A stretch of 17,060 nucleotides of DNA. Source: Promethearchaeota archaeon (GTDB lineage: Archaea > Asgardarchaeota > Lokiarchaeia > Sigyniarchaeales > SOKP01). This document shows positions 2,300-8,215 of this stretch, piece by piece; the first letter of the stretch is position 1; every line of letters begins with the position of its first letter. The DNA is taken from contig JABXKD010000076.1 of assembly GCA_013375475.1 (NCBI GenBank), positions 1 to 17,060 on the forward strand, given 5' to 3'. Under the pieces are notes generated by a model. That model saw only the letters and a program-made list of their open reading frames with translations, searched no databases and was not told where the DNA came from. A program made the position numbers and the translations under genes.

Positions 2300-5167
2300 A
2301 TGAATCAAGCCCAACCTCCTTCTGATATAGCTTATTTTCAACCTTTAGAAAGTTTAATTACAACATTTCAAACAGACATTAATAGTGGTCTTAGTACATC
2401 AGAGACAGAAAAAAGACAACTTGAATTTGGCTACAATGAATTACCAAAAATTAGAAAATCATTATGGAAAATATATCTCGCACCAATATTTAATTTTTTA
2501 ATTATAATTTTAATAATTTCGGGAACAATTGTTATATTACTTGGAGATCGGACATCAACAATCATTACTTTTGCAGTCGTAGTTATTAATTCTATTACAG
2601 TAATAACTCAACAGTATAGAGCTCAAAAAGCTTTAGAAGCCCTAAGGCAAATTGCTGCTTTAAAAACGGTTGTTTTACGTGATGGAATTCAATTTGAGAT
2701 TCCTAGCAGAGAATTGGTTTTAGGAGATATCGTTTTGTTAGAGCAAGGTGATAAAATCGGTGCAGATGCAAGAATTATTGATTTAATGAATTTAACTATA
2801 GACGAAGCGCCACTTACTGGAGAAAGCGAACCGGTAGAAAAAAATAACAAACCGCTAGAAGACCGCAAATTATCCGTTCAGAAACAAAGTAACATGGTGT
2901 TCATGGGGACTTATATACATACTGGCAGAGTAAAAGCACTTGTGACCGGAACTGGACTTAACACTGAGATTGGTAAAATTTCAAGTCAACTTAACGAAAT
3001 GGGAAGTATTGAGGATATTCCATTAACAAGAAAATTAAATAGATTAGGGTATATTCTCGGAACGATAGTCATTATTTATCTAATCATCTTAATTGTGTAC
3101 AAATTTTCCATTCTAGGACTAGAAGGTTTATTCTTTGGTGATAACATACGTGACGCAATTATCTCTTCTATTTTAAGGGCAATGGGAATCATGCCTATCA
3201 ATTTACCTCTATTAACAACCCTCGTTCTCGTCACGGGGGTACTTAATATGGCTCAAAGCGGAGTAATTATAAAAAATTTATCAGCAATTGAATCTCTTGG
3301 TCGAGTTTCTGTAATTTGTTCAGATAAAACGGGAACAATAACTAAAAACGAAATGACCGTTGAAAGAATTTGGATAAACAACAATGAATACGAAGTAACT
3401 GGTTCAGGATATGACCCTGAAGGGAAGATTCTTGAAGATGGAAACGATATGACTCTAAAGGAAAATCTTACATTTATAAAATTCATTGATTCAAGCGTAT
3501 TAAATAACAATGCTAAATTAGTTTATGAGGATGTAAAAGTCCGATTAAAAGAATCAAAGGAAATTGCCGTAAGAAAAGCCTTAGGTTCGCCAACAGAAGC
3601 CTCATTAATAGTGTTAGCTGAAAAAGCTGGATTTAATCCTTATGATCTGAAAAATCGATACTCGATTTTAAAGGAGTTTTCGTTTAGTTCTGAATTTAAA
3701 CGAATGACAACTGTATGTAATCTTAATGGAGATGAAACCAGCATTTTAGCATTCTCGAAAGGAGCTCCAGAGAGGATATTAGATATAGCAACTCAAATTG
3801 AAATAAATGGAGTAGAAGAGCCATTAACTGAAAAACTAAAAACTCTCTTAATCGATAACATTCAAAAACGAGCGAATCAAGGATATCGAACTTTAGCCAT
3901 TGGTTATAAGAAACTTAAGGGTGACCAAGAATTTATAAGACAAAAAATTGAAAATGAACTCGTTTTCTTAGGATATGTTTCAATATTAGACCCTCCAAGA
4001 CCCGGAGTTAGAGCATCAGTAGAGGAGAGTGAAACAGCTGGTATTAAAATTTCAATGATCACGGGAGATCACCCAGCGACAGCCAAAACTATTGCTGCTC
4101 AAATGAGAATATTTAAGGAAGGAGATTTGGTAGTAGAGGGTTCTGAAATTAGTAATTTAAGTGATCAAGACTTTGAAAAAGTTTCTGTATTTGCGCGAGT
4201 CAATCCCTCAGACAAGGAGGTGATAGTAAAAAGGTACCAGTCGGAGGATCACATCTGCGCTATGACAGGTGATGGCATTAACGACGCGTTAGCTTTAAAA
4301 TTAGCAAATGCAGGAATAGCCATGGGAATTACTGGAACAGATGTTGCAAAGGAAACTGCTGACATGGTTATAAGTGATGATAACTTCACATCAATAGTTA
4401 GGGGTGTAAAGATTGGTCGCGGTTTATTTGCAAGAATACGAACAATAATATTTTTTTTTATTTGTTTAAATCTAATGGAATCAGTTATTTTTTTTACTTA
4501 TGAATTCGTTCCATTTTTTGATTTATTTAGCTCAGAATGGCAACATATTTATATCTATGGAATTGTTCATTCTTTACCTGCTCTAGCCTTAGTAATTGAT
4601 AAACATCCTAAAGATGTTATGAAAGAACCTCCAAGAGACGAAGAACAACTGTTGAATAAGAATATGTGGATACTTTTGGTAATCCATGCCGTTTTGATGG
4701 GAATAGGGTTAGTTTTGGTACTTCAGCTAACTTTAGGAGGTACATTCCCCCTAAACGAATGGAATCTTAATCTTGAAATTAGTTATTTACCAATTGGCTC
4801 AACTCCTGACGAGTTACTAGCTCAAAAGGCAAGAACTATGTTTATTACAACAGTGTATATCCTTGAAACTATGTTTATCTGGAGTATAAGACGCCCTAAC
4901 AAAAACTTATTTAAAAGTGTAAAAGAAGAATTTAGTCTTGCTTTATTTATAATTTGTTTATTAACTCTCACATTACATATTCTCTATGTGGTATTTTCAC
5001 AGCAAGTAAATTATTACGTAAATGAAGAGTTTGGACTTAACTTTCAAATTAATTTTATGTTTCTTAGCGGCTTTGATTGGTTGGTATGTATTGCATTAGC
5101 ATTTCCAGGTTTAATAGGAATAGAAGTTTTTAAGTATATTGCAAGAAGAAAAAAGATTATCTTCTAA
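2300..5167 (+). CDS. P-type ATPase, type II (P2A-like) scaffold with atypical transport site, paralog 1
   Basis: LTGES (A domain), CSDKTGT (phospho-Asp codon 3323-3325), FSSEFKRM, KGAPE, DPPR, ITGDH, FARVNP, MTGDGIND and about 10 TM helices. TM4 reads MPINLP; TM6 reads IYGIVHSLP. Confidence 0.95.
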   Translation: MNQAQPPSDIAYFQPLESLITTFQTDINSGLSTSETEKRQLEFGYNELPKIRKSLWKIYLAPIFNFLIIILIISGTIVILLGDRTSTIITFAVVVINSITVITQQYRAQKALEALRQIAALKTVVLRDGIQFEIPSRELVLGDIVLLEQGDKIGADARIIDLMNLTIDEAPLTGESEPVEKNNKPLEDRKLSVQKQSNMVFMGTYIHTGRVKALVTGTGLNTEIGKISSQLNEMGSIEDIPLTRKLNRLGYILGTIVIIYLIILIVYKFSILGLEGLFFGDNIRDAIISSILRAMGIMPINLPLLTTLVLVTGVLNMAQSGVIIKNLSAIESLGRVSVICSDKTGTITKNEMTVERIWINNNEYEVTGSGYDPEGKILEDGNDMTLKENLTFIKFIDSSVLNNNAKLVYEDVKVRLKESKEIAVRKALGSPTEASLIVLAEKAGFNPYDLKNRYSILKEFSFSSEFKRMTTVCNLNGDETSILAFSKGAPERILDIATQIEINGVEEPLTEKLKTLLIDNIQKRANQGYRTLAIGYKKLKGDQEFIRQKIENELVFLGYVSILDPPRPGVRASVEESETAGIKISMITGDHPATAKTIAAQMRIFKEGDLVVEGSEISNLSDQDFEKVSVFARVNPSDKEVIVKRYQSEDHICAMTGDGINDALALKLANAGIAMGITGTDVAKETADMVISDDNFTSIVRGVKIGRGLFARIRTIIFFFICLNLMESVIFFTYEFVPFFDLFSSEWQHIYIYGIVHSLPALALVIDKHPKDVMKEPPRDEEQLLNKNMWILLVIHAVLMGIGLVLVLQLTLGGTFPLNEWNLNLEISYLPIGSTPDELLAQKARTMFITTVYILETMFIWSIRRPNKNLFKSVKEEFSLALFIICLLTLTLHILYVVFSQQVNYYVNEEFGLNFQINFMFLSGFDWLVCIALAFPGLIGIEVFKYIARRKKIIF

Positions 5168-8215: not shown

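Follow-up and report, generated by a model that had tools for sequence, protein, structure and literature searches.

This study concerns two tandem genes, here called A and B, in a 17,060-bp stretch of DNA (~33% G+C; the window) from Promethearchaeota archaeon (contig JABXKD010000076.1). As judged from their sequences, the P-type ATPases that they encode belong to a real, conserved and so far undescribed P2-level subfamily that is well defined by sequence and common in the phylum, and that we call the PxN/His family after the residues that mark it in the fourth and sixth transmembrane (TM) helices. It is very probable that its members are active pumps of a separate family with a non-canonical membrane site, and probable that their substrate is not Ca2+. 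Taken together, the residues point, with moderate confidence, to working 10-TM P-type ATPases of a distinct, old family whose site would suit a low-charge cation.

Catalytic motifs and membrane site of A and B

Both reading frames are open and full-length, and their products, 41% identical over the full length, carry the complete Pfam set of a type-II P-type ATPase (Cation_ATPase_N, E1-E2_ATPase, Cation_ATPase, Hydrolase and Cation_ATPase_C). The motifs TGES, DKTGT, KGA, DPPR, TGD and GDGxND are all present in both. In the lines below, which give the genes and the residues in question, pumps that keep the Glu after the TM4 Pro are called PE-type.

2300..5167, +, gene A: 955-amino-acid (aa) P-type ATPase (P0001), A-type paralogue of the PxN/His family (open reading frame (ORF) and translation)
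5345..8215, +, gene B: 956-aa P-type ATPase (P0002), B-type paralogue of the PxN/His family (ORF and translation)
2609..2623, +, TM2-end QQYRA of A: Gln105 replaces the Glu that is invariant in PE-type pumps
5654..5668, +, TM2-end QQYRA of B (sequence)
3194..3208, +, TM4 PINLP of A, CCTATCAATTTACCT: Ile300 at the position of SERCA E309, Asn301 at that of G310
6212..6226, +, TM4 PINIP of B, CCGATTAATATCCCG (sequence and MAFFT alignment)
3323..3337, +, phosphorylation motif DKTGT of A (sequence; invariant in 31/31 clade rows)
6341..6355, +, phosphorylation motif DKTGT of B (sequence)
4268..4285, +, hinge motif GDGIND of A, then ALAL: the clade has Leu664 where GDGxNDxPAL normally has Pro
7295..7312, +, hinge motif GDGVND of B (sequence)
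4469..4480, +, TM5 NLME of A: Asn724 and Glu727, retained site-I ligands
7496..7507, +, TM5 NVFE of B (sequence)
4568..4570, +, TM6 His757 of A, codon CAT: at the position of the Ca2+-site Asp (SERCA D800; HMMER and MAFFT)
7604..7606, +, TM6 His754 of B, codon CAC (sequence and MAFFT alignment)
4865..4867, +, TM8 Glu856 of A (in LET, 4862-4870): SERCA E908 position, retained
7925..7927, +, TM8 Glu of B (in CES, 7922-7930; sequence and alignment)

When A was aligned by HMMER with the solved Listeria Ca2+-ATPase (6zhf), its TM6 stretch ...iyiygivhslpal... paired with ...lfinlvndslpai..., such that His757 faces a Ca2+-binding Asp and Tyr753 faces an Asn. This pairing, and a MAFFT alignment against 103 PE-type sequences, reproduced what the original prediction had drawn up by eye for TM6 (N796 to Y/S, T799 to V/L and D800 to H). 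The positions that it had assigned to the TM4 motifs and the His codons proved exact to the base, and the residues that it had read in TM5, TM8 and at the TM2 end were confirmed. Both carboxylates of site II are thus gone, the TM4 Glu being replaced by Ile, Val or Phe across the family and the TM6 Asp by His. In addition, the TM4 Gly gives way to a conserved Asn, the invariant TM2-end Glu at the cytoplasmic mouth to Gln, and the TM1 Gln to Pro. The site-I ligands are kept, namely the TM5 Asn and Glu and, mostly, the TM8 Glu. The paralogues differ from each other in TM6, which reads Tyr/Phe-x-x-Val-His in A and Ser/Ala-x-x-Leu-His in B, which makes a difference in affinity or substrate between them probable.

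The PxN/His proteins form one clade

An HMMER scan of 1.84 billion representatives of 50%-identity clusters returned 85,534 matches, the best 150 of which were examined; 39 of these 150 carry the PxN/His signature, and among them the cluster closest to A is P0122 (66-68% identity) and that closest to B is P0134. A MAFFT alignment (134 rows) combined A, B and the third P2-like pump of the same genome with 131 of these 150 clusters, leaving out 19 clusters that are shorter than 800 aa, longer than 1100 aa or devoid of DKTG, 10 of which have PxN and/or His marks and 9 PEGL. The TM4 Glu is missing from 31 of the 134 rows and present in 101 of the other 103 (the PE rows). Among the 31 rows without it, 28 read P-[IVLFW]-N and all 28 have the TM6 His, the remaining three being PIMIP with His, PWSFP with His and PVSIP without His. 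In the 101 rows with the TM4 Glu, the TM6 residue is Asp in 93, Glu in four, Ser in two, and Asn and His in one each.

Phylogenetic analysis yielded the same division. A FastTree phylogeny contains a 31 | 103 bipartition with a support of 100 on a branch of length 0.4. For a rooted tree (IQ-TREE quick search, LG+G4, 79 rows), the ingroup comprised every row of the clade (31), 31 of the 103 PE rows, the canonical pump of the window's own genome (contig C17), six canonical pumps of other genomes in the phylum and two odd P2-like pumps, and the outgroup six archaeal P3A and two P3B pumps. The 31 rows again form a clade (SH-aLRT 100); it makes up a trichotomy with a clade of 39 PE-type rows (support 96) and a single PEELP pump. 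On this placement, the family branches basally at the P2 level rather than from within the Ca2+ pumps. The lone branch at the P2 base of this tree is L131 (G038:C1:2786460-2790962), a 931-aa P-type ATPase with TM4 PEELP and TM6 ...ELFMDLAAS....

Within the clade we distinguish three subgroups, PIN[IL][PV] (25 rows), P[VF]NFP (four rows) and PW[NS]FP (two rows). A groups with P0122-P0124 and B with P0134 on different branches of the first of these, implying that the duplication is old and that A and B are, on the sequence evidence, old paralogues. Although the 31 representatives are only 32-65% identical to A, the catalytic residues, Pro299, Gln104 and Glu727 are invariant in all of them, and Asn301, Gln748, His757, Pro760, Glu856 and Arg864 are conserved in at least 90%. 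Positions that separate the clade from the PE rows are, numbered as in A:

Pro62 (TM1): Pro in 27/31 clade rows vs Gln in 99/103 PE rows
Gln105 (TM2 end): Gln in 26/31 vs Glu in 103/103
Asn301 (TM4): Asn in 28/31 vs Gly in 91/103
Leu664 (GDGxNDx-): Leu in 26/31 vs Pro in 100/103
His757 (TM6): His in 30/31 vs Asp in 95/103

Further discriminating features are Leu304/305, Thr312, Arg335, Arg865 and a clade-specific insert in the TM7-8 loop, where Pro817 and Asn822 are conserved. The positions equivalent to N796 and T799 are not conserved in the clade. Among close homologues of A, Asn301, Asn724, Glu727, His757 and Glu856 are each found in 119 of 119, and in 25 genomic copies from 19 genomes the His and Glu727 are present in all, Asn301 in 23 and Glu856 in 22; the three exceptions at Glu856 are Ile and all belong to one family of genomes (f24).

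The family motif is better written P-[IVLFW]-N-[ILF]-[PVI] than PIN[LI]. As a working definition we use this TM4 motif together with a His in place of the TM6 Asp, QQ where TM2 ends and a score of at least ~1000 bits on a profile made from the alignment of the 31 clade rows (the A1 profile), on which A and B score 1288.9 and 1284 bits. Rows used to train the profile score at least 1038 bits, a figure biased upward by that use, and PE rows 722-895 bits. The original prediction had held that the shared substitutions reflect selection rather than decay; in support of this, the PxN/His proteins make up one fully supported clade and are not scattered among PEGL/Asp relatives, and the recurrence of the His in close homologues and genomic copies is far above chance.

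A few sequences depart from the pattern. P0154 has lost the Asn (PVSIP), the His and the TM8 Glu all together, which hints that the three may work as one site. P0141 reads PIMIP and has His-Asp in TM6, and P0128 has DKMGT at the phosphorylation motif. P0261 is a PE-type pump (PEALP) with His at the TM6 Asp position that groups with the ordinary PE pump P0178; its His is an independent Asp-to-His change outside the family.

Comparison with known families and structures

The sole curated cut-off that A and B pass is that of the generic P-type superfamily model TIGR01494 (272.4 and 301.4 bits, cut-off 62.3), which bears out the expectation that they fall in no curated subfamily. On the SERCA-type model TIGR01116 they score 454.7 and 436.0 bits against a cut-off of 703.4, and on the PMR1-type model TIGR01522 450.4 and 480.3 bits against 798.3, so that these P2A equivalog cut-offs are missed by 220-350 bits. 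Three further clade members reach 396-521 bits on P2A models, likewise below the curated subfamily cut-offs, while the PE-type control P0159 passes TIGR01116 with 732.3 bits. None of the five clade members reached a cut-off of the P2B, P2C, P2D, P3A, P3B, P4 or P5 models. For P3A (TIGR01647, cut-off 615.5), the scores are 344.3 for A and 343.2 for B (343-364 across the clade members scored); for P3B (TIGR01524, MgtA; cut-off 610.75), 317.4 and 287.0; for P4 (TIGR01652, cut-off 431.25), 122 and 111 (89-123 across the clade members scored); and for P5 (TIGR01657, cut-off 618.25), 237.4 and 253.7. P1B models give at most 235 bits against a cut-off of 346.

The diagnostic residues lead to the same result. 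A and B have the architecture of P2 pumps, with the Cation_ATPase_N and Cation_ATPase_C domains, 10 TM helices and P2 structures as their nearest folds, and lack both P2A hallmarks, the TM4 PEGLP with its gating Glu and the TM6 Asp. They have His for the TM6 Asp of P3A and no TM5 Arg, and neither the TM4 P-[DE]-[ML]-L-P nor the TM6 Asp of P3B. P5 pumps carry PP[EDA]LP in TM4, and no double Pro is found there in A or B. P6, the type of mycobacterial CtpE, is set apart as a family of its own by a replaced TM6 Asp, according to the available part of PMC10654040, which is also our source for the other statements credited to it here. The PxN/His proteins resemble CtpE, compared by that description alone, in being P2-like pumps whose TM6 Asp is replaced, but CtpE keeps PEGL and has Ile in TM6, whereas A and B have lost PEGL and have His.

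An AF2 (AlphaFold2) model of A, computed from a 31-row alignment (pLDDT 81.6, pTM 0.71), has a P2A-like fold in which TM4 is unwound at 296-301 and TM6 broken at 757-758, that is, at the changed residues. The top Foldseek matches are SPCA1 in the E2P state (8iwt) and SERCA2b in E2-BeF3 (6ln8), with a TM-score of 0.75-0.79, followed by LMCA1 and then the Na,K- and H,K-ATPases; over LMCA1, SPCA1 and SERCA together, the range is 0.75-0.80. By sequence, the best matches among solved structures are LMCA1 (6zhf, 445 bits), SPCA1 (8iwt, 395 bits) and SERCA (350 bits), and a search of the ESM Atlas returned generic P-type clusters only.

The family thus shares with the P2A Ca2+-ATPases LMCA1, SPCA1 and SERCA the domain set, the 10-TM layout, TGES/DKTGT/TGD/GDGxND and the TM5 Asn..Glu, and with SERCA also the TM8 Glu. 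It differs from them in TM4 (P-I-N-[LI]-P for PEGLP), in TM6 (x..x-His for Asn..Thr-Asp), at the TM2 end (QQ for QE), in TM1 (Pro for Gln), in GDGxNDxP (Leu for Pro) and in the TM7-8 loop insert (P817, N822). LMCA1, SPCA and PMCA have kept site II and lost site I, and the pattern in the PxN/His family is the reverse.

Distribution

Named members of the family come from Loki-, Thor-, Hel-, Hod-, Hermod- and Odinarchaeota and from 'Promethearchaeota', nearly all of them Asgard archaea, and the deepest subgroup (P0152) has relatives in Promethearchaeota and Helarchaeota. Two labels seemed to extend this range. Cluster P0139 is labelled Korarchaeota, yet the named sequences closest to it all belong to Promethearchaeota, Thor- or Lokiarchaeota, and we do not count it as a wider occurrence; the label Nanopelagicaceae bacterium on P0049, a close homologue with 77% identity, is probably a binning error.

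At the level of genomes, the A1 profile leaves a gap between clade members (at least 1152 bits) and PE-type pumps (at most 903 bits). As a check on the threshold, all 30 loci at E = 0 (31 ORFs) were found to have P[IL]N[IL]P and the His, and the best matches of five lower-scoring genomes were all PE-type. At E <= 1e-290, a clade copy is present in 201 of the 301 genomes sampled from the window's phylum, a lower bound in that divergent members could fall just under the threshold; it is present in 69 of 90 high-quality genomes and in 51 of 70 genera. By family of genomes, the counts are 63/68 in f1, 6/7 in f2, 24/28 in f7, 57/76 in f9, 14/19 in f14, 3/3 in f15, 10/11 in f16 and 15/21 in f24. No match at this threshold was found in f5 (0/4), f10 (0/5), f17 (0/4), f19 (0/5), f21 (0/6), f22 (0/7) or f29 (0/11). 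The clade pump is often present twice; most families other than f1 have one copy. Tandem A-B pairs occur in the window and in three of five other f1 loci (L148-L150), and in the other two (L147 and L151) one or two genes lie between A and B.

Outside the phylum, 201 genomes of another archaeal phylum (that of L022's genome) gave no match at E <= 1e-280, in a scan run without a positive control. A pattern search of genome contigs with the generic DKTGT and GDGVND returned at least 80 loci, and the 80 listed (L011-L090) are all PE-type pumps of bacteria and other archaea. Within the material searched, then, the family is seen almost only in Asgard archaea, Thermoproteota and bacteria lying beyond the genome-level scan. 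A search of archaeal and bacterial proteomes for PIN[LI] together with the TM6 His had been proposed, and such a clade does exist; its range is almost entirely Asgard, and its motif is wider than the one proposed.

Coexisting pumps, selection and transcription

The window's genome encodes five P-type ATPases, namely A, B, a canonical pump with PEGL, N..E and NIATDG on contig C17, and two P1B pumps of CPC type. In each of the five other genomes checked, a clade copy scoring at least 1152 bits is accompanied by a PE-type copy of at most 897 bits, and thus a canonical PEGL/Asp pump stands beside the clade pump in six of six genomes. MgtA-type P3B pumps were found in 28 of 301 genomes, including all three of f15, where the clade is also present in three of three, and in none of f22, f29, f10, f17 and f19, which lack the clade. 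Complementarity with MgtA was considered as a lead towards Mg2+ and set aside, as no inverse pattern to the clade appears across the 301 genomes.

Gene B and its same-genus orthologue in L097 (86% identical) differ by a dN of 0.086 and a dS of 1.37 (nonsynonymous and synonymous divergence), a ratio of 0.063; this figure concerns gene B only and comes from the one of eight same-genus B pairs that is unsaturated, the other seven being saturated or nearly so. Contigs of three metatranscriptomic libraries from two studies map on both genes. Those of X16 cover 5458-5813, 6034-7398 and 7502-8316 in B and 2390-2622 in A, and those of X19 and X21 cover 2777-3116, 4240-4390 and 4479-4629 in A, plus further pieces of B. 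The pieces are 92-99% identical to the window and hence derive from related strains; stretches of the window without such contigs (e.g. 570-2276 and 10243-11380) are no sign of silence. The claim that both proteins look active is thus consistent with the catalytic residues invariant in 31 representatives, with the dN/dS of ~0.06 in B and with RNA-library contigs on both genes.

The rebuilt site and its substrate

The pumps would go through an ordinary E1/E2 cycle and move one substrate at a single, much less acidic site. This site would consist of TM4 backbone carbonyls together with Asn301, Asn724/Glu727 and His757, with or without Glu856, so that one cavity would present one or two carboxylates, two amides and one imidazole. 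Since the negative charge of such a cavity would be too low to accommodate two Ca2+, and the ligand set unusual for alkaline-earth ions, canonical binding of two Ca2+ would appear impossible. More generally, we infer from the residues, as did the original prediction, that Ca2+, Na+ and K+ are not bound in the canonical way.

The substrate that we favour would be a single low-charge cation, in the first place H+, with ions of the Na+, K+ or NH4+ type possible; H+ or a monovalent cation specifically is, however, a tentative assignment about which we have real doubts. In plant AHA2 and fungal Pma1, both P3A pumps, the proton acceptor is the TM6 Asp, and the His of the PxN/His family stands at exactly this position. 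As in archaeal P3A pumps (IPVALP/IPVAQP), a hydrophobic residue follows the TM4 Pro, and both groups combine a single protonatable residue at the same TM6 position with a built-in positive charge in the core. The TM6 motif of P1B-4 pumps is HEGxT, and these share the TM6 His while differing in their P1B architecture, their TM4 SPC motif and the absence of P2-type N- and C-terminal domains. That H+ is favoured also follows from the fact that built-in positive counter-ions are established, the His of P1B-4 and the Arg of P3A being described as internal counter-ions (PMC10654040). By analogy with these, the His-Glu pair could be the protonatable centre, and the protonated His a built-in counter-ion.

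Several points weigh against this interpretation. The analogy with H+ pumps is partial, as the archaeal P3A pumps that we retrieved keep the TM6 Asp, the TM5 Arg and the QE at the TM2 end (Asp and QE are kept in the P3B pumps as well) and form the outgroup in the tree. The combination of His, Glu and Asn is no less typical of transition-metal sites, and the two buried Glu that are kept may allow some binding of Ca2+ or Mg2+ at a site-I-like position. Pump activity and substrate are read from residues, and the site geometry is likewise deduced from the alignment. The FastTree analysis used 898 columns with the motif columns left in, and the trees, computed with LG-type models, have no eukaryotic P2A-D, P4 or P5 references and, in the rooted tree, 31 of the 103 PE rows. 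Transcription of A and B is weakly supported by the RNA-library contigs, which are no proof of it, and the gene neighbourhood offers no functional hint in 21 loci. Neither gene context nor the phyletic pattern of MgtA discriminates among substrates.

The same residues (His757, Glu727, Glu856, Asn301 and Asn724) could instead make a mixed N/O site by which one divalent transition metal (Mn2+, Fe2+, Co2+, Ni2+ or Zn2+) is exported in metal-rich anoxic sediment. Such a pump would explain why a His/Glu/Glu/Asn/Asn set is conserved in the unwound TM4/TM6 core, and the SPCA1/PMR1 type, which can handle Mn2+, is among the best structural and hidden Markov model relatives. The window stretch is contained in DNA runs labelled marine sediment or subsurface metagenomes, and the two CPC-type P1B pumps are the only other metal pumps of the genome. 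We nevertheless consider it unlikely, since the acidic entry funnel is neutralised (Glu to Gln, 26/31), the gating Glu has become a bulky hydrophobic residue, and the site would have a net charge of no more than -2, or of just -1 in f24, which has Ile for Glu856. Moreover, no His- or Cys-rich metal-binding tails or domains were found in A or B by the Pfam domain scan, and no metal-related neighbours in the window and the compared loci.

An alkaline-earth pump, with Ca2+ or Mg2+ bound at one variant site-I-like site, is less probable still. His is a poor ligand for both ions, no equivalent of E309 or D800 remains, and conservation is lacking at the N796 and T799 positions. A canonical PEGL/Asp pump is already present in all six genomes examined, and no complementarity with MgtA-type pumps is seen. 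What speaks for such a pump is that the overall closest families are P2A Ca2+ pumps and that the TM5 Asn..Glu and TM8 Glu are kept, which account for three of the five ligands that side chains provide in SERCA site I. There is also a precedent in CtpE, which lacks the TM6 Asp yet imports Ca2+ (PMC10654040), and the PxN/His pumps might be importers in the way proposed for this P6 pump.

A pump of the P4 kind, in which the TM4 Ile is a hydrophobic gate, phosphorylation is spontaneous and the substrate is bulky and amphipathic (a lipid head group or similar), seems improbable. The flippases of this class have PISL in TM4 and DGET in the A-domain; PINL is like the former in its Ile after the Pro and its small polar neighbour, and A and B have TGES rather than the latter. 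The positive residue in the core and the occurrence in Asgard archaea would agree with a P4-like pump, which could even be related, as a prokaryotic form, to the stem from which the eukaryotic P4 flippases arose. Four of five clade members (P0001, P0002, P0137 and P0129) score 111-123 bits on the P4 model, vs 91-96 in three PE-type pumps, but the fifth, P0152, has 88.8 bits, and all are far under the cut-off of 431. The tree and the fold point to P2: by fold, P2A structures rank ahead of the Na,K- and H,K-ATPases, and the 48 Foldseek matches listed (all SPCA, SERCA, LMCA1, Na,K- or H,K-ATPases) include no P4 structure. Buried Glu727 and Glu856 are typical of ion sites, and no conserved partner gene was found. 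P4 pumps are, in addition, described as unique to eukaryotes (PMC10654040).

Finally, decaying or non-transporting paralogues that drifted after duplication of a Ca2+ pump are hardly credible, as nothing specific argues for them other than P0128 and P0154, and against them stand full-length open frames, catalytic motifs invariant in 31 of 31, the low dN/dS of gene B and the same substitutions fixed over three subgroups and 201 genomes.

Gene neighbourhood and other contents of the window

We compared 20 loci of 19 genomes with the window. None of the neighbouring genes is conserved across families in these 21 loci, conservation being confined to within families, and the neighbourhood therefore gives no functional hint. 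In f1, the order is TFB, 186-aa membrane protein, TFIIB-like 320-aa protein, A, B, GNAT and DUF362, and in f9 it is subtilase, ATPase, UFM1-ligase-like protein and PanB.

The features of the window around the pair are:

2-406, +: C-terminal part of a TFIIB/TFB protein (PF00382), running off the window edge
497-1057, -: 186-aa multi-TM protein after the TFB fragment on the opposite strand, no Pfam match
1232-2194, +: 320-aa protein directly upstream of A, weak match to the TFIIB zinc ribbon (E 0.006, under cut-off)
8289-8834, +: GNAT acetyltransferase (PF13302), directly downstream of B
8935-10245, +: DUF362 protein
10322-13146, -: ABC-2-type transporter pair (ATPase subunit of 313 aa, permease of 628 aa)
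13557-17059: luciferase-like monooxygenase, short histone-deacetylase-family protein (256 aa), NAD-dependent epimerase, then an ORF running off the window end

In several f1 loci, homologues of the TFB fragment and of the 186-aa protein are likewise found nearby, flanking the ATPase pair on that side (clusters c5 and c2). A homologue of the 320-aa protein is found near the pair in five other loci of the same family and is immediately adjacent in four (cluster c1), which could mean either a dedicated regulator of the TFB type or mere family-level synteny. The GNAT gene occupies the same place in three other f1 loci and the DUF362 gene in two (clusters c6 and c15), and neither is conserved beyond f1. 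The ABC-2 permease has a long N-terminal half that is rich in Asn, Ser and Thr and has no Pfam match. In three of five f9 loci (L140-L142), a protein of ~660 aa adjoins the ATPase gene (L141:11425-13410, cluster c21) and matches the eukaryotic E3 UFM1-protein ligase 1 family over residues 129-187 (PF09743, E 1.5e-10). Just upstream of and into the start of A, one contig of the DNA run X1 (window ~1846-2511) joins 2511 to 1846 with five extra letters, a joint that may be a strain-level rearrangement or an assembly artefact.

Relation to the literature and significance

A few residues in the membrane decide how P-type ATPases are classified and annotated. As the original prediction anticipated, the names automatically given to the PxN/His proteins are those of a Ca2+-transporting ATPase, a label that hundreds of members now bear. 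In a census of Asgard transporters, P2-like pumps are filed as orthologues of a 'putative Ca2+ ATPase' (PMC7997004, available part). The types recognised in the 2023 review by Palmgren are P1-P6, with CtpH and CtpI as the only further candidates named in the part of PMC10654040 available, where further P-type families are predicted from prokaryotes; the term 'Lokiarch' does not occur in PMC10654040. The PxN/His family is not described in the accessible parts of PMC7997004, PMC7016017 and PMC10456885, and no description of it was found in the searchable literature, a scope outside which lie subscription papers and supplementary files that may hold such trees.

A remodelled site I with a TM6 His was not found in any characterised P2-P6 pump compared. 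The family may conceivably represent a seventh kind of P-type pump, an old, Asgard-centred branch from the base of P2 for a substrate other than Ca2+, Na+, K+ or Mg2+, and we offer this as a serious suggestion short of a favoured one; the substrate would then be H+ or NH4+, a transition metal or something non-ionic. If this is true, the position in Asgard archaea and the P4-like hydrophobic TM4 gate could show how a cation pump is converted into one for non-cations.

Altogether, the PxN/His family offers a natural experiment, a SERCA-type engine with site II deleted and Asp800 changed to His. The universal Ca2+ pumping ascribed to Asgard archaea (PMC7997004, available part) may partly rest on PxN/His proteins and would, to that extent, need revisiting.

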